From Moniliella sp. 'wahieum' (lineage: Eukaryota): a stretch of 64,000 nt of DNA. The notes below the pieces were generated by a model. That model was not told the DNA's origin. It saw nothing but the letters and a program-made list of their open reading frames with translations, and searched no databases. Below are positions 15,414 to 59,200 of the stretch, piece after piece. The first letter of the stretch is position 1. Each line of letters begins with the position of its first letter. Location: contig RSEE01000034.1 in assembly GCA_003971905.1 (NCBI GenBank), forward strand, positions 310,001 to 374,000. The letters are read 5' to 3'. A program made the position numbers and the translations under genes.

Positions 15414-15467
15414 AGCACCAAGCACCAAGCACCAAGCACCAAGCACCAAGCACCAAGCACCAAGCAC
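15414..15467 (+). repeat. (AGCACCA)~7.7 tandem heptamer just 3' of the RRM gene stop
   Basis: Directly visible. Confidence 0.95.
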
Positions 15468-15487: not shown

Positions 15488-16223
15488 TCAGGCCGTAGGC
15501 GGGGGGAACCTAAAAGATACAGAGAGGGAGAGGTGAGTCAGCCCGCTGCGACATAAGCAGCGAGAGGCAGCCAAAAGAAGAGGGGACGTACCCGTACTGG
15601 CCCGGGTAGCCAGTCTGCGTGGCGGGGTAAGCTCCTTGGGGTGCAAAAGCAGCTTGGGAAGGAGCGGTGAAGGCGCCTTGAGAAGCAAAGCTGGTCTGGG
15701 GCGATCCGTAGGGAGGGTTGGTAGGCGAGACAAAGCCCTGCGGCGCGCCAAATGCGCCCGGGGTCGGGTACCCCGCTGCGGCCGCAGCCGCAGCCGCAGT
15801 GGCCGGATCAGCAAATGCCGCCTGGCCCTGGTACGGGTTGGCCATGCCCGGAGCAAAGCCTTGGGCAGGCATACCAAACGAGGCGCCCGGCGGTGCATAG
15901 CCCGGCGCACCGTACGCGCCGTAGCCATTGAAGCCACCGGCAAAGCCAGCATTGTACCTGCCGTCGGTGCGAGCCGGGCGGGAGTTGGCCATGTTGACAC
16001 GGATCGTACGGCCGTCGAGCTGTTGCTCGTTCATGCCTTGGATCGCCGCATCGGCTTCCTCTTGGGTGGCGTAGGTCACAAACCCGAATCCACGGGAGCG
16101 GCCCGTTTCGCGGTCGCGCATCGTGACATAATCGACCAGTTGGCCGTAGGCGGAGAAGGCACGGGCAAGACCATCATCGGTCGTGTCCCACGACAGGTTA
16201 CCGACGTAGACTTTGGCAACCAT
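15488..16223 (-). CDS. Single-RRM glycine-rich RNA-binding protein; intron 15591-15510
   Basis: RNP2 VYVGNL, RNP1 RGFGFVTY, LDGRTIRVNMA, then a G/A/P/Y/Q-rich tail. Splicing GTACGT..CTGAC..TTTTAG gives the end GFPPPTA*. Confidence 0.92.
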
Positions 16224-17194
16224 CTTGGAAGGAAAGGTCAGATGGATTCAGGTCGGGAGGGAGGAGTCAAAGAGCCCAAAGGGGATGTGCGTACTGGAAA
16301 AAGCAGGGGAGAGAGAGGGGGGGCAAGCGGGAACTAGGGTGCGTGGGGCAGAGCAAGCAAGAACCAGGATCTGGGGCGGCGCGAAGAGGGAAGGTTAGCG
16401 GGACGTGGGGGCGTGCCCCACACGACGGCTGGGGCGACAGGGGGAAGACGGACCAGAACCAAACAAGAACGAGCACGCAACACCGAAGCGGACGAAACGG
16501 GCTGTGGGCGGGGGGCACAGAGAAGAAGACCAGTCAGCGCACGCGCGGCAGGCCTCGACGCAGCAAGCAGGACGAGGGGGAGGGAGGAGGAGGCGGCGGG
16601 CAGAGGGGACGGACAGGCTGAGGCGAGTCGAGGGGAGGCGCAGACAGGCGGTGGGGACGGCGGGGCGGAAGAAGGAGGACGCTGGGCGCGCCGACACGCC
16701 CAAGGCTGCGACGGGCGAACGTTGGACGTGGGCAGCGGCCACCGCCTGGGCGCGGCGCCGCTCTCAGCGGGTGGCCGGAGGAGCTGCCGGGGTGCTGCCG
16801 CCTGCGTCGCCGGCCTGCCTGCCCGCTGTGTCCCCGCAGGGGGCCGTGCGAGCCACACCGCCCCCGTGCTGCCGTCCGCGTGCCACGTAGGGCGCATGCC
16901 ACACTGGCGCCGTGCCGCGTCCTCCGCCATCGTCCCACGACGCATGACGCGTGATGCATGACGTGAGCATCGCCCACGCCACCTGGCTGCGGCTGGGCGG
17001 GTTGATTCATGGTTCGCCCATGGCCTGGGGGTCTCTTCTCTCTCTCCGCCCTGCCCTCCGTCCTTCTGCAGCCCATCCGCCAGCGCCTCCACCACCACCA
17101 CCATCGCCACCACCACCCCACCAAAGCAACCCCCTCCTGGGCCATCACCCATTGCGCAGTCGCCACGCGCTGCGAGTCACTTGTCACCGTCACC

Positions 17195-17434
17195 TGTTGG
17201 CCTAGGGAGCCGGACGGGCAGAAGGATGAGGAGAAGGTGATGGATTGGAGCCAGAGTTGGGTCTGGGTACAGAGGCATCTATATAGGAGGCTGGACTAGG
17301 CACAGGGACAGTGAGTCACACAGGAGAGAGTGCAGGGCACAGGGACAGTGACACGCAGGGACGTCAGCGTGGAAGCCGATGGAACCGAGGCGAACCTGGT
17401 CTACCGACTGGGAGCCAGAGGATCACAGTCAACA
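17195..17434 (-). mobile_element. 240-bp LTR-like sequence (left copy, pointing leftwards)
   Basis: Reverse complement of 18938-19177; TG...CA termini; G-tract immediately internal. Confidence 0.65.
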
Positions 17435-18937
17435 CCCCCGCTGGCCAGGGAACCCGGAGACATCGGTTGTGGGATGAGCTCCTGCCAGTGGATGTAGAGA
17501 GGGGAGGACTTGAGTGGCAACCGGGACGAATGGCCTGGAGTTGTGCATGGCCACACGACTGGCCTACACCCCCGCTGTCCAGGATGACACCTGAACGAGC
17601 CGAGCGCTTGTGGTTGGTGTATTGTGCGACCGCCAGATGCTTGTAGAAGTCTTAGAAGTAAAAGTAGTAGGGGTTGCGCCCCGAAGCGATTTGGTGGGCA
17701 AAAGTAAAAAGCACCAGTTATAGGTGTAGTGAAAGAAAATTGGAAACTTGGAGTAAATGCGGTCCAAGGTCGTTTGGCATCAAAATTGGATGCGTTTGGT
17801 AGTTGTTTGGTTCCGCATGCCTGGTGCCAGTGGGGTCCATTGGGCATGGGAAATGAACGGGCGCTATGCGTCAACCGTCTTGATCTGTTTGGGTTCTCTT
17901 TGTTGTTGAAAAAGAGGAGTGGAAGAAGTTGGGTGACCACCCCCCCCCATCCTTTCCCCAGGTGCCCCGGATGAATTGGCAATCCGGGGCGTGTAGCCGT
18001 GGGTGGGGCACTTGATGAGCAGCCACCCCCGCTTTCTGCGATTCGCCTGCGCCGTTTTGTCGTTGGAGGAATTTCGTCTCGTTGACGATACCCGACACGT
18101 TTTGTTCCGTCGTGTGTTGTCCCTAAAAATCATTGCCCCATCTGTGGGGGACGAGTGTGCCGATTGTGGCGGTAGTATGCCGATTGTGGCGGTAGTACTA
18201 CCGCCACAATCGGCACACTCGTCCCCCACAGATGGGGCAATGATTTTTAGGGACAACACACGACGGAACAAAACGTGTCGGGTATCGTCAACGAGACGAA
18301 ATTCCTCCAACGACAAAACGGCGCAGGCGAATCGCAGAAAGCGGGGGTGGCTGCTCATCAAGTGCCCCACCCACGGCTACACGCCCCGGATTGCCAATTC
18401 ATCCGGGGCACCTGGGGAAAGGATGGGGGGGGTGGTCACCCAACTTCTTCCACTCCTCTTTTTCAACAACAAAGAGAACCCAAACAGATCAAGACGGTTG
18501 ACGCATAGCGCCCGTTCATTTCCCATGCCCAATGGACCCCACTGGCACCAGGCATGCGGAACCAAACAACTACCAAACGCATCCAATTTTGATGCCAAAC
18601 GACCTTGGACCGCATTTACTCCAAGTTTCCAATTTTCTTTCACTACACCTATAACTGGTGCTTTTTACTTTTGCCCACCAAATCGCTTCGGGGCGCAACC
18701 CCTACTACTTTTACTTCTAAGACTTCTACAAGCATCTGGCGGTCGCACAATACACCAACCACAAGCGCTCGGCTCGTTCAGGTGTCATCCTGGACAGCGG
18801 GGGTGTAGGCCAGTCGTGTGGCCATGCACAACTCCAGGCCATTCGTCCCGGTTGCCACTCAAGTCCTCCCCTCTCTACATCCACTGGCAGGAGCTCATCC
18901 CACAACCGATGTCTCCGGGTTCCCTGGCCAGCGGGGG

Positions 18938-19177
18938 TGTTGACTGTGATCCTCTGGCTCCCAGTCGGTAGACCAGGTTCGCCTCGGTTCCATCGGCTTC
19001 CACGCTGACGTCCCTGCGTGTCACTGTCCCTGTGCCCTGCACTCTCTCCTGTGTGACTCACTGTCCCTGTGCCTAGTCCAGCCTCCTATATAGATGCCTC
19101 TGTACCCAGACCCAACTCTGGCTCCAATCCATCACCTTCTCCTCATCCTTCTGCCCGTCCGGCTCCCTAGGCCAACA
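18938..19177 (+). mobile_element. 240-bp LTR-like sequence (right copy) preceded by a PPT-like G tract
   Basis: CAGCGGGGG|TGTTGA...CCAACA with 5-bp terminal inverted repeat TGTTG/CAACA. Internal direct repeat TCACTGTCCCTGTGCC x2 lies upstream of TATATA (19087-19092), followed by a pyrimidine-rich tail. No gag/pol motifs recognised in the adjacent internal sequence. Confidence 0.65.
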
Positions 19178-19236
19178 CCCCCATCTCTCACCCCCCCCTG
19201 TTTTCCTTCTTGCCCTGGTCCCCGCCTTGCGCCCCG

Positions 19237-20646
19237 ATGCCCCCCACGCCTCCTGCCGCCTCCCTTCCCCCGTCCAGCCCATCCAGCCCATCCCGCCCAT
19301 CCCGCCCATCCTGCCCATCCTGCCCGTCCGGCCTTTCCAGCACGCCCGACCTGGCGGGGACCAAGAGCGACTCGCTGGCGCCCCGCGCGTCCAACTGGAA
19401 AGTGATTCGCACCGTGTGGCACGACCTGGGCTGGGTGGACCGGAGCTTACCGCTGCTGATTTTTGTCGCGATGGCGTTGGGCATTGTGATTGGGGAGTTT
19501 GCGCCAAATGCGCAAAGGGTGTTGAGCCGGGGCAACCTGCGCGGAGTGAGTGCGCCGTTGGTAGTCGGCATGTTGGTCATGATGTGGCCGATTTTGACTG
19601 CGGCTGAATTCGAACGGTTTCCCAGCTTGTTGCACCAACGAAGGTTGTGGACGCAGATTGGCTTGTCGCTCGTGCTCAATTGGGTCATCGGCCCGCTCCT
19701 GATGCTCGGGTTGGCCGAGGCGAGTTTGCCCGACTTGGCAGGCCAACGAGCGGGCGTGATCCTGGTCGGGGTGGCGCGGTGCATTGCGATGGTAATGATT
19801 TGGTGTTCGATCAGTCGGGCCGATACCAACTTTTGTGCCATGCTAGTGATTGTCAATGGGGCGTTGCAAATGGTCTTGTTTGCGCCGATGGGATTGCTGT
19901 TTATCAATGTGTTTGATCACCTGGGCCAGGCCGGGATTTCACTCAACTACTCGGATACCAGCATTGCCGTGGCGGTGTACCTCGGCATCCCGTTGGCCGC
20001 CGGGGTAGTTACGCGGTTTGGTATGATGGCGTTGCTGGGTCGCGAGAGGTTTGTGCACCGGTTCTTGCCCTCGTTTGGACACTTGTCCCTGATTGGGTTG
20101 CTGTATACGGTCCTCATCATTTTCTCGCAACAAGCACACGATGTGCTGCACAATCTAGGGGCAGTCTTCCGTACCATGGTCCCGCTTGCCCTCTACTTTT
20201 TGATCCAATTCAGCTTGACCTTTACCGGGTTTTACCTCTACTCGCGGCGCGTGGCACGGCAGGCGGAGCGGACCGGCGGCTCGGTGGCGCCGTGGTCGTA
20301 CGAGATGGCGGCCACACAGGCATTTACCTCGGCGTCGACCAACTTTGAATTGGCCATTGCCATCAGTACGTCCGTGTGGGGTGCGCAGGCGCCCCAGACG
20401 CTGGCTACGACGGTGGGCACGTTGGTCGAAGTTCCGGTCCTGCTATCGCTTAGCTTTGTCGCCATCTTTTTGCGTTCCCGTCTGTCGTGGCCCCGGTCCA
20501 CCCCACACCCAGCACGACCGCTCATGACACCTTCCTATCTCGTAGGGGAGGACAAGAATGATGACATCAGTTCCCCCGACTTGCCTGCCCCCTTGCCTCG
20601 AACCACTTCCCAAGACATTGAGCTAGCCCCGATCTCGACCAAGTAA
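19237..20646 (+). CDS. ACR3: Acr3-family arsenite/antimonite efflux transporter
   Basis: VSAPLVVGMLVMMWPIL, SLVLNWVIGPLLM, GVARCIAMVMIW (conserved Cys), VYLGIPLAAG, ASTNFELAIAI, VGTLVEVPVLL; ~10 hydrophobic segments; intact and intronless. Confidence 0.95.
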   Translation: MPPTPPAASLPPSSPSSPSRPSRPSCPSCPSGLSSTPDLAGTKSDSLAPRASNWKVIRTVWHDLGWVDRSLPLLIFVAMALGIVIGEFAPNAQRVLSRGNLRGVSAPLVVGMLVMMWPILTAAEFERFPSLLHQRRLWTQIGLSLVLNWVIGPLLMLGLAEASLPDLAGQRAGVILVGVARCIAMVMIWCSISRADTNFCAMLVIVNGALQMVLFAPMGLLFINVFDHLGQAGISLNYSDTSIAVAVYLGIPLAAGVVTRFGMMALLGRERFVHRFLPSFGHLSLIGLLYTVLIIFSQQAHDVLHNLGAVFRTMVPLALYFLIQFSLTFTGFYLYSRRVARQAERTGGSVAPWSYEMAATQAFTSASTNFELAIAISTSVWGAQAPQTLATTVGTLVEVPVLLSLSFVAIFLRSRLSWPRSTPHPARPLMTPSYLVGEDKNDDISSPDLPAPLPRTTSQDIELAPISTK

Positions 20647-27900: not shown

Positions 27901-30410
27901 TACAATATATACTCACATGTCACATGCGACGCCTTCCCGAGCCGCACTCAGCCGCGGTATACGTATCCAAATGTAGCACGTTATACAACGAGAGAGGCAA
28001 CAGCTGTACACCAGTGTCCAATCAAATAAGGCGCAAAAGAGACAACTATAATAAGAGCGTGAACAGTATAGGGTTTATTAAACGGTAAACGTTACACGTC
28101 AAGAGCTTCAGTGTTGATAGTAAAGATCAGACGGAGCAGGGCTACTTAAACCACACAGGATGGCGACGACCGTCACCACCATGCAGCCGAATGAATTAAT
28201 GAGAGGAACTACACGGCATCTTTTGACGCTTGAACTCTGGAGCAGTGTTGGATATCTACCCTTCTTTCTGGTGGCACATACTGGGTCATTTGTCGGTTCC
28301 GCTTCGGTTCCGCCGTCCACACCGATGAACGGGGGTGACCGGTGAACGTTCGTTGAGCGTTGAACCTTTCCATGATAGCCACCATTGCATAACCTCGATG
28401 ACCGGCCATGACCTTGCCGTCCTCCATCAGAGGGCCCGCGCCAGTGACCGTCCAAAAACACTTCTGCGTGTGGGTTTTCGCCGCTGAATTAGGAGAGGAT
28501 TTGACGGAGAAAAATGGTTGGATACCAGTATACTCTCAGTACCTATAGTTCTGTGTATATATCTGCAGGGAAAAGAAAACGGCCAAAAGCTGTTGAACTT
28601 TTTTGTATAATTCTGGTTGGTGGTATGATGCGTGTGAGACTTCACATGGGGACGAGCATGTGCAAAAAAGTAGTTGGAAAAGAGACGGTAGGTGTCTAGG
28701 ACAGGAGCTGATCGATAAAAGTAATACGTGGAGTTCTCAGTGGTGCCCGAATACAACTCAAAAAAGTGGGGGGAAGTAAAGAGATGCAAAGTCTTCAAAC
28801 TTCAATGCCCACAGAGAGGACCTTTGTCCATTTAGTCTAAAGACAAAGCCAAATTTTGAGAGGAAGAGAGGGTGATGCAGTGTTAGTGACACCTACCGTG
28901 GGTTGGGGTAACCCGTAATGCATAATGGAGGCCCTGTCGTCTATCACATTTGGGCTGCGATATCTCCTTGGCCCCCGATCCCCCGAGTCTGGGGCAAGGT
29001 GCCACACAGCCATACGAAGACTATTAGTGTACGCCGAATTCTCTTACCGAGGCGAGTGAACGGAGCTGTCTGAGTAATATGCACCGGCCTCCACTTTCTC
29101 AAAAGGCGAGCAACTGAGCCGTAGACATCGGGTTTTGGATCCCTTCCACATCGGCATCAGCAATTGCAGGTACAGGATGGGACTACCGATAGAGCCTCAG
29201 TAGTTGTACAGTGTGCCTCTTCGCAATGGGAGGCAACCGGGTTTGGGGGGAGTGTCGTCCCAACCGTCTATGGTTCCGTTCTTCCAGCTATACTATGAGG
29301 GACGGTACATCCCTCTTGTCCCTTTTACCTTTACTACGCCGTACGGCGGCTCCTCTCTGCCACACTTTCCTCGAAACCGATTCTGCCGCCTCTGCACCTA
29401 CCGTCCAACTATAGCATGCCGTATCCGGGCTAATAATGAAAAAGAGACGGTGTGGTGTGTGGGCTGGCAGAACTGGGCAGATCTTTTGATTTGGAGTGCG
29501 GTTACAGGGAGTAACAGGAGGTGTACTGGATGAGAGGGCTTCGGTGGTACTAACAGCTAGCATGTCGAGAGTTATTGATATGGCGGAGCGGGGGTATGAT
29601 ATATGATGGCCAAGGGAACTTAACTATAGCCTGTGTACTATAGCCCTGCGGACGGTGCGTGCCCACCGCTTTTCCTTCCCCTCTCAATTGAAGTTGGTGC
29701 TCTGCCTCCCCACCATCCATCATCACTGTGTTGGGACCCGTGGTCCCGTACATACGTCAAAGCGCCCTATCATTGTTCGAACCCCTGTCTCTTCCAGGTA
29801 CACAAATTACTCGGCATCGACCTCCAGAGGTTCACCATCCCAATCCATGGGTTTTACCGGTCTTACACACTGTTCCGCTATCCACTTCCCTGATGTAATC
29901 TCTTGTTTCCCCGCTCACTGTGAGGCTGATCGACTGTCTCTCACCTCTCTTAGTAAACTGCATGGGGAGAGTGCCCAGCTCCATGGGACACAGCGCATTT
30001 CTGTGTCATGCCTATGGGAAACAAACTGGGAGATTGTAAAGCTCTAGATGAGAAGAGATGCATTGAAGAAAACATTCGAAGACTCGCAAGGGAAAAGACC
30101 GACAGAGATGTGTGCGTAAAAATAAAGCCATGCACTGGCAGAGAGACAAAATGTAGAAGACGGGTGCTCGCTATGTATACTAGTCGCTGGAGGCGTGGGA
30201 TACGCCGATCTGCGCCAGCCGTCCCAAAAGGGCCGAGTGCTGAACTATCTCCCGCAGTCGTTGTGTTGCACTGCAGCTTGCGTTGCCGTCAACAAGCAAG
30301 AAACAATGCACACAGGCGTACAGTCGCTTTTCGTCGTAACTTGGTCAAAAATAGTCGGAAGGAGGCGCTGTTTCCAACGAAATCTAAGGCCTTAGCCATA
30401 GGCCTGAGAG

Positions 30411-30456
30411 ACGCGTGACGCGTGAAGCTTGAAGCTTGAAGCTTGAAGCTTGAAGC
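30411..30456. repeat. Heptamer array (ACGCGTG)2(AAGCTTG)4
   Basis: Directly visible; longest example of the window-wide palindromic-heptamer pattern. Confidence 0.95.
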
Positions 30457-30788
30457 CTACAGAACCACGCCCCAGAAACAGAGACGCCACACTTTTCCTT
30501 TTGAGCGCTGGTTGAGAGAAAGCACCCCGTTGGAGATGGCACGTGACTTTACATTTCAACATTAGAAGTAGCTCCTACTTCAGGGTACAATAGGGTTGCG
30601 AATTTATGCCGCAGCGGAATAGTGGCTGTGTGCCCCTGTGCCTGGAGGGGGAAACAACCCCAAGCAATAGGCAGGGGGCGAGTCTTGCGCCCGCCGCCGC
30701 TGGCCCGCCTGCTTCCGACGGTCCCCTCCCAGCCTAAGCAACGGGTGCGCTCCGCTTTGTTCTGTCCACCACAGCAAGTCGAAACACC

Positions 30789-45262: not shown

Positions 45263-46445
45263 TTAGCCCAGGGCCGCACGCACGGCCGACCGTTGCGCAG
45301 GGGTTAAACGGTCGGGCACTTGGAGTTCCCAGTTGATTACCAGGTCGCCCTTGCGGGTACCCTTGGTTTTGGAGATGGGCATCCCCTCGTTCGGAACGCG
45401 GGTGGTACGGTGGCCTTGGATCGTAGTCTGACCAAGCCGAGGCTGGGGGAGGGGAACCGAAATGGAGCGCCCATCAAGCGTGGTGAGCGTCTTCGACCCC
45501 GACTTGGGGGGGTCAAGCGCATCGACCAGGGGGAGGGGAAGTTTGGCAATCAGGTCGTCCGATTCACGCGTGAATGTATGGTTTGGCTTCTCGCTGATGA
45601 CGAAAACCAGGTCTTGGGATTTGCCGGGAGCCACCTCGTTTCCAGCGCCAGCAAAGCGGATCTTGGTCCCTTTCTTCCACCCGGGCTTGACGTCGATCGA
45701 GAGGATCTTTTCCTCAGACCCGCCACTGAGCAGACGCTTGCTGACCTTCAGCTTTTTGGTGGTACCTTTGTACAGGTCCTCAAGTGAGACAGGCAGTTGC
45801 TTAACCGACTCGGTTGGTTCCTCCTCCTCGGGCTCCATGCCACCCATCCCGCCCATACCACCCATACCACCCATTCCATTGAATAGGTTGTGCATCCCCG
45901 CTCCGCCACCGGCCTTGCGTCGGCTACCACCCCCTCCCATACCGCCCATACCGCCCATACCACCCATGCCCCCCATACCACCCATACCACCCATGCCGCC
46001 GCCAAAGAGATGTGCAAAGATGTCGTTGGGGTCTGATGGAGTGAATCCGCCAGGGCCTCCCGAGGTAAATGTGAACGTCGAACCACCCGGGCCACCAGCG
46101 CCGGCGAAGGGGTTGCCGCCAGCAGAGAAGCCTTCTGCGCCGCCCGGTGGTGGTGGCCCTGCCTTCAGTCCTTCTTCCCCATACTGGTCGAATATGGCGC
46201 GCTTGTCCTTATCCGAAAGGACCTCAAAGGCCTCGCTCAAATCTTGGAACTTGGCCTTGGCTTTAGGGTCGTCCTTGTTGCTGAAGCAATGGAAGTCAGT
46301 ACTGGCGACAGATGGGCTGGCAGAGGAGAATGAAAACGTACCGGTCGGGGTGAAGCTTCAGAGCCTGCTTCTTGTATTGCCTCCGGATCTCAGCCTCGTC
46401 TGCATCCTTAGATACACCGAGGATCTTGTAGTAGTCTTTTCCCAT
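45263..46445 (-). CDS. SIS1: Type II cytosolic Hsp40 (Sis1-like); intron 46341-46282
   Basis: [11 protein letters not shown]...LHPDR|NKDD J-domain, G/F region, GGM repeats, [37 protein letters not shown]. Confidence 0.94.
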
Positions 46446-48587: not shown

Positions 48588-49838
48588 ATGTCTCTCTCGA
48601 CCAAGACCTCCATCACCGACGTCGACCTCGCCGGCAAGCGTGTCCTGATCCGCGTCGACTTCAACGTGCCCCTCGACGGCGACAAGATCACCAACCCCCA
48701 GCGCATCGTTGCTGCTCTGCCCACCATCAAGTATGCGCTCGAGCACAAGCCCAAGGCCGTCATTCTCATGAGCCACCTCGGCCGCCCCAACGGCCAGCCC
48801 AACCCCAAGTACTCGCTCAAGCCGGTTGCTGCCGAGCTCGAGAAGCTGTTGGGCAAGCCTGTCACTTTCCTGCCCGACTCGGTTGGTCCCGAGGTGGAGA
48901 AGGCTGTCGACGCTGGCAAGGACGGCCAGGTGTTCCTGCTGGAGAACCTCCGCTTCCACATTGAGGAGGAGGGCAAGGGCGTCAACGCTGCCGGTGAGAA
49001 GGTCAAGGCGGACCCCGCCAAGGTGGCTGAGTTCCGCAAGGGTCTCACTGCTCTGGGTGACGTGTACATCAACGACGCTTTCGGTACTGCTCACCGTGCC
49101 CACTCGTCGATGGTGGGCGTCGAGCTTCCGGTGCGTGCCTCGGGCTTCCTCATGAAGAAGGAGCTCGACTACTTTGCCAAGGCCCTTGAGCACCCCGAGC
49201 GCCCTTTCCTTGCCATCCTTGGTGGTGCCAAGGTCAGCGACAAGATTCAGCTGATCAACAACATGCTCGACAAGGTTGACAAGCTCATCATTGGCGGTGG
49301 TATGGCCTTCACCTTCAAGAAGGTGGTTGAGGGCATGGCCATTGGCAACTCGCTCTTTGACGAGGAGGGTGGCAAGCAGGCCAAAGCCCTTCTCGAGAAG
49401 GCCAAGGCCAACAACGTTGAGGTTGTGCTCCCCGTTGACTTCATCACGGCCGACAAGTTTGCCAAGGACGCGGCTACCGGCACTGCCACTGACAAGGATG
49501 GCATTCCCGACGGCTGGATGGGTCTGGACGCTGGGCCCGAGTCGCGCAAGCTGTTTGCCAAGACCATCTCTGAGGCCAAGACCATCCTGTGGAACGGCCC
49601 TCCCGGTGTGTTTGAGTTTGACGCCTTTGCCAACGGCTCTAAGGCCATGCTCGAGGCTACGGTTGCTGCTGTCAAGGCGGGCGCGACGGTCATTGTCGGC
49701 GGTGGTGACACGGCCACTGTGGCTGTCAAGTTTGGCGGTGCCGACGAGCTGTCGCACGTTTCGACGGGCGGTGGTGCGTCGCTTGAGCTGCTCGAGGGCA
49801 AGACGCTGCCCGGTGTGGCTGCGCTGTCCAGCAAGTAA
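48588..49838 (+). CDS. PGK1: Phosphoglycerate kinase
   Basis: [80 protein letters not shown]; intact, strong codon bias. Confidence 0.99.
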
Positions 49839-51042: not shown

Positions 51043-54000
51043 ATGCTGCAGCCCCCGCACGACCCCCTCCTCATCCTCTCCAACACCCAGCTCCAGCGCC
51101 TCAGCGACACCGATCCCGACAGCATTGCTGACTTGTGGCAGGGTACGCTCTGTTCGCTTGCGTGGGCTGCCCAGCGCTGCCTCGCGCCGTCTGCCCATCC
51201 GCTGACCCCCTCTCCCCCCCCCCCAGTCTTCTCCAAGGTCTCCGCCGCCCTCCGCAATGGCCCCCGCCTCGAGAATCTCTCGTGGCGCATGTGGTACCGC
51301 GAGGCCCACATCCTGCCTCCCGAAATGGGCGTTGCTGACCTGCTCACGCCCAGTCCCACCCTCTTGAGCCTCAACAACTCGCCTCTCAATCGCAGCCGCG
51401 CCGGCTCCAAGGCGCCCACACCTGCCTCTTCCCTTGCTCCACCTCGCTTGCCCTCCCCGCCCTCTGCCCCTTTCGACCGCGTTTGGCTCTCACGCACGCG
51501 TCAAACAGCGCAACCGCGCACTCTGGGCTCAGACCAGCGAGGGCATTCAGTTCCCCTCGACGGAACCAGACTCTGACCCCACTCCGGCTTCGCAGCACGC
51601 AGCGCCACCTCCGGAACATGCGGCGTGCATGTCGCACCAGCAGCACGAGTTTGAGCAACAACGCAGGCGTCCCCTCAGCTTCCAGGCTGTCATTGAATCG
51701 CTCGATTTGGACCCCCAGTCCGACCCCGGACCCGGCCGGGCTGCTGTGTTCAACGAGTTGCGCAGACCTTTACCAGACTCTCTCTCCCGCCCCCGAGCAG
51801 GGAGCACTGTGTCATGGAATCCCCCCGCCCGCCGGCCCGTGCTCATCAGCAACCGCTCGGCCAGCGCTGTGATCCAGACATCTCCTACCGCTTCTCTTCC
51901 TCAGTCTACTGCGTTGCCAAGAAACACGTCTAATGCAGACGAGGATGAATGGGAGGACGATGAGGAAACCTCTTCTGTGAAGCCAACTGAACGTGCTACT
52001 TTGACCGGGGCGACTCCTGCACCCCCTTCTCTTGAGGCAAAGCAGGATGCGGATGAATGGGAGGACGAGGAGTGGGTGGAGAAGACACCTGCTTCCAATC
52101 CAGTGGCCCAGAACAAGATCACACCTGTTGTCCCTGAAGAACCTGTGCAGGCAGTGAAGTCTGAGGCGACACCGCCTCCTGTCGTCGCAAACTCCAGCCT
52201 TGAGGAGGAAGAGTGGGAAGAGGAACCTGTTCTGCCTGCCCCGAGCAACAGAAAGGGGAAAGGGAAAAAGGAGAAGAAGAGCAAGTCCAAGTCAGTAAAG
52301 GGGGAGAAGATGCGCTCTGTCCCCAGCATTACAGCCCAGCCCAAACCCACTCCAAAGCCCGCCGCCCAACCTTCTGGTGAGCATGAACCTGCTCTCTCTC
52401 TCTCCCGCCCGCTCCTGAGCCCCACCTTTCCACTGCTTCCTCCCCAGCTCCATCTGCACCGCCAGCACCGTCTGCCCTGCCTGTCCTACTCCCTTCTTCT
52501 GTCGAACCTCCCACTGTCGAGGAGGGATGGGAAGATGAAGAGCTTCCCGCACAAACCCCCGCACTTCCTCCCAAAGTCCAAGTCAAGAAGCCAGCACCCA
52601 TACCCCAGGCTCAGGAGTCGCCCGTGGCCAAGGCAACCCCGCCTAATTCTGTCCTTCCCAGTAAAGACGGGTGGTCGACAAGACGACGAGGAGGATGGCT
52701 GGGAGGAGGAGGAGGCCCCTTCCCGCACAGTGGGCAACAGGAGAGCGGGACGAGACAAGGCCAAGGCCAAGTCTGCTAAGGCATCTCTCGCGCCTGCGGA
52801 ACTTCCCAAAGCCACTAAGGGGAAGGAGGAGGCCGAGGAGGGTTGGGAAGAAGAGCCAGTTCAGTCGAAGCGGACCCACGTGATGAATAAGAAATCTCAC
52901 CTGCGCCAGGCCAAGAAACAAGCTCACCTTAAATCCAAAGCTGCTGTGGAACCGATCGCATCTGCGGATGAATGGGAAGAAGAGGCAGCCCCAGTACCTT
53001 CTGGAAAGTCCACTGTGTCGCCCAATGTGAAGGTATGCACCCCCGCGGTCCCTACCGCTTCGACAGTCCCACCTGAGCCAGAGGGGGAATGGGAAGAAGA
53101 ACCGATACCTAATCCCATCCGGACTACAAAGAAGGGTAAACGTCCTTCACCCGCTTCCCGACCCGGTCGTTCCCAACGTCCCGACCAGACACGGCATGTC
53201 CCCCCTTCAACTACAAATGAAGACGAGTGGGAGGAGGAACCGGATACTTCTGTGACGCATGCGGAGAAGAAAGCCCCCGTATCTCAGCACTCCGTCGAGC
53301 CTACGCAGCTGCACACCAAAGTGTTGCCCAAGGAACATTTGCCTGCTCAGGAGCTTTCGCCTCCGAAAGCTGCTTCTACTGCCTCGGTCGTGGCCGCGGC
53401 GCCACCCCCTACCGCGCCAGTTGCAGCCAAGACGGAGACCAAGACCACCCATGTGGAGCCCAAGGTTGACGTCAAGCCCAATCCCCCGCGAAGGGGTAGC
53501 AGTGGTCACTTGCGCAAGTCGGGACTTACCATGACACCCCATGTCGGACGCAAGTCGGCAACATCCCTAGCCAACAATGGGGGGGCAGCACACAATCCTC
53601 CTGCTCCCCTGGGCGGTGCCGGCGGGCATGTGCCTCATAACCGCAAGTCGGCCACGAACCTGGCCCGGATCAAGTCACAGTTGTCCATGATGCCGCATCA
53701 CCCACCTCAGGCGGCAAAGAAGTCCAAGTCTGCCTCCAAGCCTGTCACCTTCGCTGTTGGCGACGAGGAGTCAGAGTCAGAAGGATCTGATGAGTGGGAT
53801 GAAGAGGCGAAGCCGACCGAGTCTCTGCCGAAACCCAAGTCCAAGCCTAAATCCAAGCCCAATCCCAATCCTAAGCCCATGCCCCCAAGCCCCCAGCCTG
53901 TGCCAACCGCTGCACAAGGTGACGACGGCGGTTGGTCCGAAGAAGAAGCACCTGTGGCCAAGCCTAAGGCCAAGAAAGGGAAGGGGAAGAAGGGGAATAC

Positions 54001-55424
54001 CAAAGCCAAGGCCAAGGTGGAAGATGAGTGGGACGATGAAGGGGCCTGGGCCAGTGATGCGACGACCGAGTCCGTCAAGCGGGAGCGTCGGGTGGCCGCC
54101 TACCGTGCGGCGCGCAAGGCAAGAGAGGATGAGCTGTTCCGAAAGGTGCCCGTGGCAGCTTTGCCCCGTTCGAAATCGGTGGCAGATGTGAGCCGACTGC
54201 CATCACCACCGCCGGCCCAGGTAGGAGGACTATCGACCATCTTCCATGCCAACCATGATCCGGATCCGGCTCCCATCCCGGTACGCACGACGATACCCAA
54301 GCTATCGCACAAGTCGGCTACAGACCTGCGGTCGCTTCTTGGCTCAGGCCTGCGCATGTCCCGTCCTGCCCCGGCACCAGTGGCGCCCAAGGTGTTCTCC
54401 CCGCCCAAGAGGGAGGGAACCCTGCGGCCGAGCAAGTCTGGATTGGCGCTTCCTATGCTCAATGTAGAGGAGTCACAGCGTTCCAAACCCAATTTGGCGG
54501 ACGAATCAGCTTCTTCTCCGGCCTCTCCCCCGCCTTCCCGATTTGTGGCGTCCTCCTTACCGCGTGTGCCGCTTCTAAGGCAACTCCGCTCCTCTTCGGC
54601 GTTACCAACGTTGGCCGCCCCGGCAGGTAACATACCCGCGAGTTCGCCTAACGATCATCCCAGTCGTGCAATGGTCCTGCTGGAAAATCTAGCTACTACT
54701 CGCATGTGCCCCCCCGTCGGCCGCCAGCCGTAAGAGCGAAAAGCTTTGTCCATTCTCCTGCGCCGGCAGAACCCAAGCACTCGCCCGAGGAGCCGTCAGA
54801 GTATGTGGCGCGCTGGCAGGCTCAATTGCAACCAGCCGCCAAATATGCCAAGCGAACTAGCTTGCCCCCCGCCCCGCCCGTGATACTTCCAGTCGCTCGC
54901 CTCCGTCGTCCGACTTGTCGGCGTCAGTGCCGCGCCCGAGCGAGACCGTCCTGAGCCCAGGTGCTATGGACCATGCTGAAGGAACCGAGGCCCAGACTGG
55001 CCCATCCTCCCTCCAACGTACGGCCCGCACCCGCGCAGCTGGCATGGACCCGGCTGCGCGTCCCTCGGCTCCCGGTCTGGACCACAGCGCTACGCGGCGC
55101 ACGGAGACGACGCATCACCGGCCCCCGTCGATGCTGGGAATGGGCTCGGCGCTGCGGCCTTTGACCTCGGTCCGTCGCCCCCCCGGTCTGGGCATGACCA
55201 CTCTCTCGCAAGAGCGCCCTGCGCCCTCGGACGGCCCAAGCACCCGTCTGGCTCAGCGCCCCTCGGCACCCAACCTGTTGCTCAACCGTGCGCCTTCCGC
55301 GGCAAGCCAGTACGGTGGCCTGGCTTCGTCGGACTCGTCCGAATCGGAGGACGAAGCGCCGTTGCCGCGCCGGAGCTTGAGTCGGGCCAACTTGACCGCC
55401 GGGTACCACATGACAGGCTGGTGA
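51043..55424 (+). CDS. DUF1752-domain protein, Mks1-like (DUF3295-like C-terminus); intron 51143-51226; several indels
   Basis: SIADLWQ|VFSKVSAALRNGPRLENLSWRMWYRE (DUF1752 signature); later ELFRKVP..LPRSKS and the terminus GYHMTGW*. Mks1-like assignment is from recalled domain architecture. Confidence 0.75.
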
Positions 55425-56293: not shown

Positions 56294-59200
56294 CCTCGCT
56301 CCCTCAGGCTGAGGCGCCCTGGCAAGCTACAAATAAATGAGACAACCGTGCGAGGGCCTCATGTCTCAGGTGGGGACAAGCCTCTCCCCTCCGGTCGTAC
56401 TGACGTCCTGAGGCCTGACCGCGTTCCGACGTGTCAGGCTGTTTGTATGTTGTAACGAACGGCACGAGGCCCAGGCCAGGTAGCCCCTACCGGCTACCAC
56501 AGCCAACGCATGGCAATACCGATCCATGGTCACCGGTCACCGGTCACCGCCCTCTATAAGCGCCAAGCTACCAGCGCTGTGTAGTAAAGCGACGGGTACT
56601 AGTACAAGTGTCTTTTTTCCTCGGTGCTTCCCTCGGTGCTGAGGCTCAGCACTCCCACCCCCACCTCCTACAGCCCACACTCTATGCCTGCGTACCTGAG
56701 ACCTCAGCCTGAGGCACGATGCCCGAGGGTTCCAGACTTGGGATGATCGATGATGCATGAGCTGTTGTGCGTTGCCCGCCCTCGCTTCCATTTTCAGTAG
56801 ATCTCAGATCTCACCATGTATAGGTTCACACACGCCCTAGCTCTCCACGTCCACTTCTCGTCTTCTCCGCTTCGTGCGTCCCCCTCCTTGAGTTGGAGTG
56901 TGGTATAATATGGCACCACCTGGCGTGATGGCTTGATCGGCCATGTCGCTGGCAACCGGAACTAGCTACAGAGTTCCGCGAGACTCGCGCACTCCGGATT
57001 AGTTACCGTTGCGCCTCGTTCCCCTACTTCTCAGTTCAACGTTCACGAACAACCACCGGCCTGGGCCCTCATTGGTGTAACCGATTTATCGCGCTTATTA
57101 TACCCATTGATCGCCAACGTGTAGTGCTTCGCCCTAACCCCCATTCTTTCATCAACGTGTCGCGCCAAGCCTGTGTGCAAGCAGCCCATGTTTCTCTCTC
57201 TGACCCTGAAATCCGAAATAAGGTATTCAGAGTTCGGAAAAGCCTGGTATGGAGCACGACGACAGTGTGGAAATTCTCAACGCACTGCAGTAAAACAGCA
57301 CCGCACTCCTCTATCCCCCTGGACCATCTTCTACGCGTCCGCCACCTGCGTCCAAATCCTGCTTGGCGACTAATACCGAGAGAAGGAAACCGACCACGTC
57401 AATGACGTGTGGCTGTCTTTGCAGTTTCCTCTGTGCGATGTTGGCCACGGTGACCCGAAATCGTTCGATCATCCGTTGCCGCGTATTTTGAGATCAACAG
57501 AGAGTATTGACGCTGGTGTTACTAGTTGCGTCCTGATTCTGTACGAGCAAAAAGATAACCGGTAACCTCCCTGATTGGTGTTTTATTGTTGTTGCTAGTA
57601 GTATGCAGATGTTTGGGGGCTGTGCGGGTGTTGTCGGTTTAATTGGTATCGCCCAGGTACAGAGGGGGGGTGATACACAAGGGGAATACGCCGAAATACG
57701 CGAAGGGGCAAAGTACAGTGTACGTGGATATGCAGAAAGATATGTACATACACCGCCTAACGCACCATTGTTATGTATTTGAGATCTGAGACCTAATATT
57801 TATGCACCGGTACGGGAGGGCGACGGTGTTTGCAGAGTGAACGGTGAAGCTGGCGAGTGAAGCTTGAAGAGAGGGAAGCACAGTATATATTACGGGGCCA
57901 CAATGATTAATGAACAGAGAACAGAGCTCTGGCCTACTTGCATCATGACCATGAGAGTGAGTGTAGCGACGTCCTGGTCCACTCGGCTATAGGGAGACCG
58001 CCACTGATGCTGAAGCGTTTATAGTACAGTAGTAGCGTAGGCGATCGATTGCGGGCGAGAGATATAGGCGTTGGTGGTAGGAAGCAAAACAAGGGCTACA
58101 GGAGGCGGCTACTAGTCGTTGGCTTACGCTGGTACGCGCTCATCAGCAGTCCTCGGAGCCCGCAGAGCCTTGGGGCTAATGAGGCCTGAGGCCGGAAGTG
58201 CACCGCGATCGATGAAGCCAGTCACTGTCGCAGCAAGAGGACCTGATCGATCAGAGAATTAGGAAGCACATCAAATACTGCATCCTCGGCCACCGTTGTC
58301 GCATCTCTCTTAGAGCTTAGGGCGGTTTTCTCTTGGTACATAATGTTACACGCACGTCTGTTATAAGACCACTTTCTTGATTAGTCACGCGTCACGCTTG
58401 GAAAGATGCCGAGAAAAACACTGCTATACCGGTGCCTTCTTCGTCATAGTAGTAGGCATGTATAACCGCAAAAGAGATGAGAGGCTCATCCCTCACACGT
58501 ATGCAAGAGTCCCTGTTCTCCAGAAAACTGGTGCGATCCTGTAATTGGTACACACCGCATTGAGACTACATATACTAGCTGCATATAAACCTCCACTGTC
58601 GAAATGTTTTAAGTCGAGGAAATGTGGACCCCCGAATAGGAATAGGGAGACGAAGATCATTTCTCGGCACAATGTTCACATGTTTCATTCAACAGAGGAG
58701 AGTCTATATATACACCTTGAGCTAAGGAGATGCGGCTGTGCTCACTGTACTCGTGTGTATATCACATCCAGTAACTTCGTACGGTTACACGTATCCACAC
58801 ACGCTTCCTCGGGTATGGGAACAGATGGCGTGCACCAGAGGGTCCTGGTCTCTTGGCGATTCCCCTGATTAATCACCTGTGATAATGATAAGAAACTGGA
58901 TCACATATCTCTGTGGCGCGTGATCATCGATGGCTGCGTCGGAGTTGGGCCATGCATGTTATGCACGGCCTTGTTCCTTAAAGTTCTTGAGGCTTGAAGC
59001 TTGAAGCTTGAAGCCTGAAGCATTGCATACCATGTACCAGGCCGTACCTGACATGGTTTGGCTAATTTCGCTCCCATTTCCAATTTCCTCGTCTCGAGCG
59101 TCTCGCTCCTTCCCTGTTTCTTCCACTTCTCGCACCATGTCCTCTGCTCTTGTTTCTTTCCCACGAATGATTGCTACACCCCTTGGCCTACTCCCGATTC

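Follow-up and report, generated by a model that had tools for sequence, protein, structure and literature searches.

A near-perfect 2-kb palindrome with LTR-like ends beside a fungal arsenite efflux gene: possibly an inverted dimer of a retroelement 3′ end

How does a chromosome come to carry a palindrome of almost 2 kb whose symmetry stops, to the base, at sequences that resemble the ends of a mobile element? The question is raised by a locus of the fungus Moniliella sp. 'wahieum' (GenBank assembly GCA_003971905.1, contig RSEE01000034.1), which we analysed within a stretch of 64,000 nucleotides (nt; positions 310,001 to 374,000 of the forward strand). This stretch is hereafter termed the window, and all coordinates refer to it. 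Here we describe the palindrome (17195–19177; 1983 nt) and weigh how it may have arisen. The reading that we prefer, with a probability of roughly one half, takes it for an inverted dimer: two copies of a long terminal repeat (LTR) retroelement's 3′ end, already joined in a single molecule when they entered the promoter region that an RRM-protein gene shares with an ACR3-family arsenite efflux gene.

Structure of the palindrome

Global alignment of 17195–19177 with its own reverse complement displayed two differences only, and the segment is thereby a near-perfect palindrome. One difference is a 20-nt tandem duplication immediately left of the centre (18154–18173 and 18174–18193; 95% alike, with one mismatch). 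The other is a homopolymer whose length is off by one base (C9 at 17940–17948, against its mirror G8 at 18425–18432). Elsewhere no substitution separates the arms, and C9/G8 is their sole difference away from the centre. The 20-nt duplication, together with the one base in C9/G8, accounts for the unequal length of the arms (1002 nt on the left, 981 nt on the right). The same structure can also be parsed as arms of 982 and 981 nt around a 20-nt spacer that copies the neighbouring 20 nt. The sequence at the centre reads ...GGCGGTAGT up to the point of symmetry and ACTACCGCC... beyond it. Calculated folding of the central 180 nt as a single strand of DNA leaves few bases unpaired (−115 kcal/mol, versus −26 kcal/mol for shuffles).

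The limits of the symmetry are exactly TGTTGG... on the left and ...CCAACA on the right, and the 60 nt to the left of the palindrome have no complementarity to the 60 nt to its right. When an arm was compared by BLAST with the whole window, both of the two matches obtained were the arm itself and its mirror. Among the three inverted pairs detected in the 64 kb, the palindrome is the sole long inverted repeat. A preliminary description of this locus had presented a spacerless palindrome with ~981-bp arms, ending precisely at TGTTGG/CCAACA between unique flanks. The self-alignment and the window search agree with it as regards the palindrome, its centre, its limits and the uniqueness of the flanks, whereas strict symmetry and the lack of a spacer give way to the 20-nt central asymmetry and the C9/G8 difference.

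The outer 240-nt unit

The outermost 240 nt of each arm look like an LTR. Each copy runs from TGTTG to CAACA, 5-nt ends that are reverse complements of each other and thus form short inverted termini. The two edges were set independently, the outer by the palindrome and the inner by metagenome matches (see below), and at such fixed positions reverse-complementary 5-mers are expected by chance about 1 time in 1024. TGTNR is the end pattern given by Bao et al. for the LTRs of Gypsy elements and for Ginger transposons (PMC2836005); TGTTG fits this pattern and is therefore counted here for a Gypsy-type LTR end (PMC2836005). Inside the unit, exact 16-mers are doubled at a spacing of 37 nt (17299–17314 and 17336–17351; mirror pair at 19021 and 19058) and a short repeat array is present (Table 1). 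In the right copy, the TATATA motif leaves ~90 nt downstream for R-U5. A degenerate repeat of 113, 127 or 134 nt was also sought within the unit, and the alignments obtained were no better than those of shuffles (z 1.0–1.8).

In each arm a CCCCC/GGGGG run sits just inside the inner edge of the unit, and the 12-mer CAGCGGGGGTGT has four matches in the window (0.00 expected by chance), two per arm and 134 nt apart. The plus strand of the right arm is laid out as a 3′ LTR would be, with a candidate polypurine tract (PPT) just ahead of it. The orientation in which the PPT precedes the LTR, with promoters facing outward, is favoured by about 2 to 1, because the G-run abuts the TG of the unit and because of the position of the TATA motif. 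The small features named in the preliminary description, namely the TGTTG/CAACA termini, the G-tract, the 16-mers, TATATA and a second 12-mer at 18795, were all found.

Recurrence of the unit in a wastewater metagenome

One public sequencing run, a wastewater metagenome (hereafter X1; share 0.05), was found to share words with the region; no RNA run did. Five X1 contigs were placed on 16200–20200, two of them at an identity of at least 99%. The first of these two (record 2) matches 17194–17324 with one other letter and then continues into 20 letters that are unlike the flank in the window. The second (record 3) matches 17322–17434 with no other letter and has no continuation into 17435. Together the two matches (99–100% identity) span the 240-nt unit and end at both of its edges, 17195 and 17434. 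The matches of at least 99% are confined to this unit, and on the inner arm, the centre and the unique flanks X1 says nothing either way. Three other X1 records (34–43 nt with 4–5 other letters; 16792–16825, 19669–19704 and 19751–19793) are less than 95% alike and were set aside as deriving from other organisms.

The unit is thus found in one further context, that of the X1 contig with its unlike outer flank, and nowhere else in the window; the X1 outer flank itself has no match in the window at up to three mismatches. On these matches, the outer 240 nt form an independent repeat that has TG...CA ends and occurs in at least one genomic context besides this one. Exact-pattern searches returned no match for the LTR end in metagenome, genome and viral contig collections, and none for the PPT–LTR junction in the metagenome contig collection. 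The preliminary description had read the unit as LTR-like and had held that this reading would fall if the unit occurred nowhere else with a PPT, a primer-binding site (PBS) and a target-site duplication (TSD). The recurrence in X1, with a different flank and with breaks at both proposed edges, speaks for the LTR reading, but the X1 matches showed neither a PBS nor a TSD, nor a full element.

Inner arm and coding content

The inner part of each arm, of ~740 nt, is non-coding in either sense. In the right arm, two frames are interrupted by stops and one is open for 258 amino acids, continuing into the LTR-like unit. This frame has no relative among proteins of 141–450 residues at E values up to 0.001, and no Pfam match. 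No long open reading frame (ORF) was found in the opposite sense of the arm. For the window as a whole, 165 ORFs of at least 130 amino acids were listed, of which 89 + 20 were scanned, those lying over or antisense to identified genes being left out. Rfam gave nothing at gathering scores across the window, and no tRNA gene was found. At E values up to 1, the segment 17100–19300 gave eight Rfam matches: six sub-threshold microRNA hairpins at the centre and two to RsmY (E = 0.15), all regarded as generic hairpins or chance matches.

Proposed origin

In the preferred reading, each copy would represent the 3′-terminal ~1 kb of an LTR retrotransposon, made up of a non-coding tail of ~740 nt, a run resembling a polypurine tract and one whole LTR (240 nt). 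The two copies would be joined head to head, with LTR termini ending in CA at both outer ends. We infer that the dimer arose outside the chromosome; most simply, reverse transcription or second-strand synthesis would have switched, ~1 kb from the 3′ end, to copying the strand that it had just made. A fold-back of this kind would leave a DNA that is complementary to itself and has the same LTR end at either tip. A free, preformed molecule is the simplest account because the symmetry stops at the very bases where the mobile unit ends and the flanks are unique; a fold-back rearrangement of the chromosome, or a chimeric read, would have mirrored the flanks or broken at arbitrary positions. The fold-back dimer of the preliminary description, with an integrase-type end on each side and a single act of insertion, finds its sole support in this coincidence of symmetry ends and LTR termini.

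The central 20-nt duplication could be the scar of a hairpin that was opened ~20 nt off its tip, filled in and rejoined. Alternatively, it may represent an extra unit of a native 20-nt repeat, with one arm reaching one unit further than the other.

Entry into the chromosome would have taken place as one molecule, either through integrase acting on the two CA-3′ ends or through end-joining capture at a break, with about even odds between the two routes. The exact CA ends fit either route, and the absence of a TSD favours end-joining capture. Integrase can accept two like ends in vitro. In yeast, Ty1 complementary DNA (cDNA) replication intermediates are captured at breaks, without integrase or TSD and with the 3′ LTR region as a hotspot (PMC11372161). 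The captures described in that account are single fragments, whereas here a self-complementary dimer with two complete LTR ends would have been inserted (PMC11372161). Abstracts on palindromic or inverted LTR dimers and on self-primed fold-back cDNA insertions described no integrated palindromic LTR-end dimer. A more specific version of the reading is offered only tentatively, its chances being well below even. It holds that an aberrant reverse-transcription product, self-templated, palindromic and bearing two identical U5-type LTR ends, became inserted in its entirety. It would survive as a palindrome with ~1-kb arms and act today as an outward promoter in both directions, with the right LTR driving the arsenite efflux gene. 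Retroelement machinery or end joining would then, in nature, have fixed a fold-back cDNA.

Several observations weigh against the dimer reading. Instability is to be expected of long perfect palindromes in vivo, and this raises the prior probability of an artefact. No reverse transcriptase, integrase, gag or other retroelement Pfam family was found in the window among the ORFs scanned, and no parent element was encountered, the window being the only genomic DNA of this fungus examined. Among flanking words of 2 to 10 nt, only the 2-nt pair CC/CC matches fully. The 5-nt flanks TCACC and CCCCC agree at 3/5 positions, a chance-level match in C-rich DNA, so that there is no clean TSD, as the preliminary description had already noted. 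The signals for orientation are weak: the polypurine run is short (8 nt) and broken by one C, and the plus strand of the left arm is purine-rich (160/240 purines in the LTR-like unit), which could argue for the opposite sense. A PBS was not recognized; in the opposite sense a TGG lies 7 nt after CAACA, and by eye the bases that follow it are unlike a tRNA 3′ end. Finally, X1 record 3 is a cyclic path of 113 nt in which the inner LTR end, 17434, joins 17322, a junction that the dimer reading does not predict. As assembled, this junction implies that some copy in the X1 sample has a tandem repeat of the first 113 nt of the LTR, or that an LTR end is joined into its own LTR.

Alternative explanations

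That the palindrome is a product of the assembly is, in our judgement, unlikely. The true sequence might be a single arm, a pair of inverted full elements separated by unique DNA, or two unlinked loci each ending in the element, collapsed or joined when a fold-back chimeric read turned the assembler inside a repeat. Perfect arms of ~1 kb with a spacer of at most 20 nt are expected to be fragile in vivo, and the sole off-centre difference between them (C9 versus G8) is a homopolymer length, the usual long-read consensus error; both points suit an artefact. However, the flanks are unmirrored and the symmetry ends exactly at the element termini, which a chimeric read would not give. The preliminary description had argued that such an artefact should mirror the flanks as well, and the flanks indeed proved non-complementary. 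The left junction, from flank to inverted LTR end, must itself have had read support, the C-rich promoter tract resumes beyond the insertion point, and the palindrome has intact genes on either side and sits in the middle of the window rather than at the end of a contig.

A non-autonomous DNA transposon consisting of terminal inverted repeats (TIRs) of ~1 kb and no middle, either foldback-like or Ginger/TDD-like, appears quite improbable. A transposase would move such an element as DNA, and its LTR look would then reflect an end motif shared by integrase-type enzymes, or coincidence. The whole unit is indeed an inverted repeat with exact ends (arms of 981–1002 nt), and the arms are non-coding. 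The preliminary description had considered a long-TIR foldback element; the inverted ends fit this idea, but the X1 match breaks at 17434, the inner edge of the LTR-like unit, which is unexpected for a continuous 1-kb TIR and weakens it. There is also no TSD of 2–10 nt beyond CC. The inverted arms of foldback (FB) elements are long, enclose little or nothing, and are built as arrays of short subrepeats. The palindrome shares the long inverted arms, but subrepeat arrays of that kind were not seen in it: its arms lack a tandem subrepeat build and hold only two short arrays. Ginger1 and Ginger2/TDD elements resemble the palindrome in their inverted terminal repeats and in the TGTNR termini that Ginger shares with Gypsy LTRs; their enzyme is integrase-related, and a Ginger2 relic has been reported in a fungus (PMC2836005). 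As characterized in that report, however, Ginger/TDD TIRs measure 40–270 bp and enclose a transposase gene, and insertion shows a site preference and a TSD of 4 bp (TDD, 5 bp) (PMC2836005). Set against these properties, the ends of the palindrome fit, whereas its arm length (981–1002 nt, with nothing between), TSD and coding capacity do not.

Least of all do we expect the palindrome to have been made in place, by break repair or replication template switching that later turned one ordinary insertion, or two in opposed orientation, into a local inverted duplication. The central 20-nt duplication resembles a scar of hairpin processing or template switching and could have arisen in this way. For the remainder of the structure, a breakpoint would have had to hit the outer base of the LTR on the left exactly, with the LTR inverted and the arms equal within one 20-nt unit. 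Moreover, fold-back repair normally duplicates flanks too, and the flanks here are unique.

Comparison with known elements

The closest likeness is to the 3′ end, or a solo LTR, of a Ty3/Gypsy element, with which the palindrome shares the 240-nt TGTTG...CAACA unit, the TATA motif, a G-run at the 5′ TG, a second copy of the G-run and recurrence with another flank. Unlike in such an element, the LTR copies are inverted rather than direct and the internal part is mirrored; gag-pol, a recognized PBS and a TSD of 4–6 bp were not found. Penelope-like elements form head-to-head copies with their 3′ ends outward, and their terminal repeats carry hammerhead ribozymes. The arrangement of the copies is alike here, but there is no hammerhead match: a Penelope-like inverted dimer was considered and is unsupported, the Rfam scan of 17100–19300 at E values up to 1 having returned no hammerhead. 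DIRS-like elements have inverted terminal repeats, an internal complementary region and a tyrosine recombinase, and give no TSD. The missing TSD fits such an element, but neither the fully mirrored interior nor the TG...CA LTR points to one, and no recombinase was found among the scanned ORFs of the window.

The second CAGCGGGGGTGT copy, 134 nt upstream of the first, resembles the second polypurine tract of some LTR elements, for example the central tract, PPT2, that Ty1 has in addition to its usual one (PMC11372161). Another parallel is Mu killer of maize, in which the terminal part of a transposon is naturally duplicated in inverted orientation, with two copies of the terminal repeat, and for which read-through from a flanking gene has been proposed to give a long hairpin RNA that silences the family (PMC3440606). 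Mu killer differs, as portrayed there, in deriving from the DNA transposon MuDR, in including coding sequence and in having its silencing shown genetically, whereas the palindrome is retroelement-like, non-coding and known from sequence alone (PMC3440606).

Insertion site and neighbouring genes

The palindrome occupies the divergent intergenic region between the RRM-protein gene and ACR3 (Table 1), which without it would measure ~1.03 kb. The first in-frame ATG of ACR3 lies 59 nt beyond the last base of the palindrome. On both sides the plus strand is C-rich (C 0.41–0.50 over 400 nt on the left, 0.58–0.50 over 200 nt on the right). This tract, running across the insertion point, fits promoter-proximal DNA that was once continuous and was split by the insertion.

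Table 1 Features of the palindrome and its two neighbouring genes (window coordinates)
Feature	Position	Strand	Details
Left arm	17195..18196	-	1002 nt; reverse complement of internal non-coding 3′ region, PPT and LTR (preferred orientation); extra 20-nt repeat at inner end
Left LTR-like copy	17195..17434	-	240 nt, TGTTG...CAACA ends; matched by X1 contigs
Short repeat array inside LTR-like copy	17301..17362	.	Period 18, 3.5 copies; includes the exact 16-mers; mirror 19021-19073
Centre	18154..18196	.	20-nt tandem duplication, then symmetry point 18196/18197 within hexamer AGTACT
Right arm	18197..19177	+	981 nt; internal non-coding 18197-18928, G-run 18929-18937, putative LTR 18938-19177
Second CAGCGGGGGTGT copy	18795..18806	+	134 nt upstream; within 18-nt repeat CCTGGNCAGCGGGGGTGT; mirror 17566-17577
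PPT-like run CAGCGGGGG	18929..18937	+	Abuts TG of LTR-like copy; mirror 17435-17443
Right LTR-like copy	18938..19177	+	240 nt, TGTTGA...GGCCAACA
TATATA	19087..19092	+	In right LTR-like copy, position 150/240; mirror copy 17280-17285
Glycine-rich RRM-protein gene (left neighbour)	15510..16223	-	Transcribed away from palindrome; ATG at 16223, 971 nt from left end
ACR3-family arsenite efflux gene (right neighbour)	19237..20646	+	TIGR00832, 306.5 bits vs cut-off 282.8

In the preferred orientation, both LTR promoters would point outward. The TATATA of the right copy lies 150 nt upstream of the ACR3 ATG. The insertion would have severed ACR3 from its former upstream DNA, and with this TATA motif before its ATG the transcription of ACR3 probably starts in the right LTR; the insertion may thus have replaced the ACR3 promoter. 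A read-through transcript of the palindrome would be expected to fold into a hairpin RNA of ~1 kb aimed at the element family.

Should the structure be real, dead-end fold-back products of retroelement replication could reach the genome intact. This would provide an extra route to long palindromes and hence to fragile sites and sources of hairpin RNA. The locus would then also be a natural test case for the tolerance of a fungus to a palindrome with 1-kb arms, in which the 20-nt central asymmetry may be stabilizing, and a metal-resistance gene, that for arsenite efflux, may have been rewired by an insertion. Should it instead be an artefact, the locus would be a warning about fold-backs at repeat ends in assemblies.

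Repeats of short period also occur in and near the two genes. Periodic 9-nt repeats of the CCCATCC type at 19261–19339 encode a Pro/Ser-rich N-terminal extension of ACR3, and repeats of the same type are found at 45826–46006, in a minus-strand gene of the DnaJ family. A perfect (AGCACCA)n microsatellite (15414–15467) lies just past the stop codon of the RRM-protein gene. A minus-strand ORF beside the left end of the palindrome (16334–17152) is of low complexity, has no Pfam match and was taken as spurious.

Other features of the window

The window has a GC content of 58% and is fungal in its genes, which are mostly long uninterrupted ORFs and include those for PRP1/PRP6, PRP3, phosphofructokinase, phosphoglycerate kinase, DnaJ proteins and an AreA-type GATA protein. 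The phosphoglycerate kinase (48612–49835) is 74–79% identical, in full-length matches, to its best matches across many Ascomycota and Basidiomycota, with no closer one among the 120 listed; the source fungus thus seems to be without a close relative in the protein collection that was searched with this enzyme. On the plus strand, 51368–54733 holds an uninterrupted ORF of 1121 amino acids with no Pfam family. Two tracts of 7-nt repeats of the (TGAAGCT)n type, at 30409–30489 and 58988–59040, are 79% alike over 53 nt.

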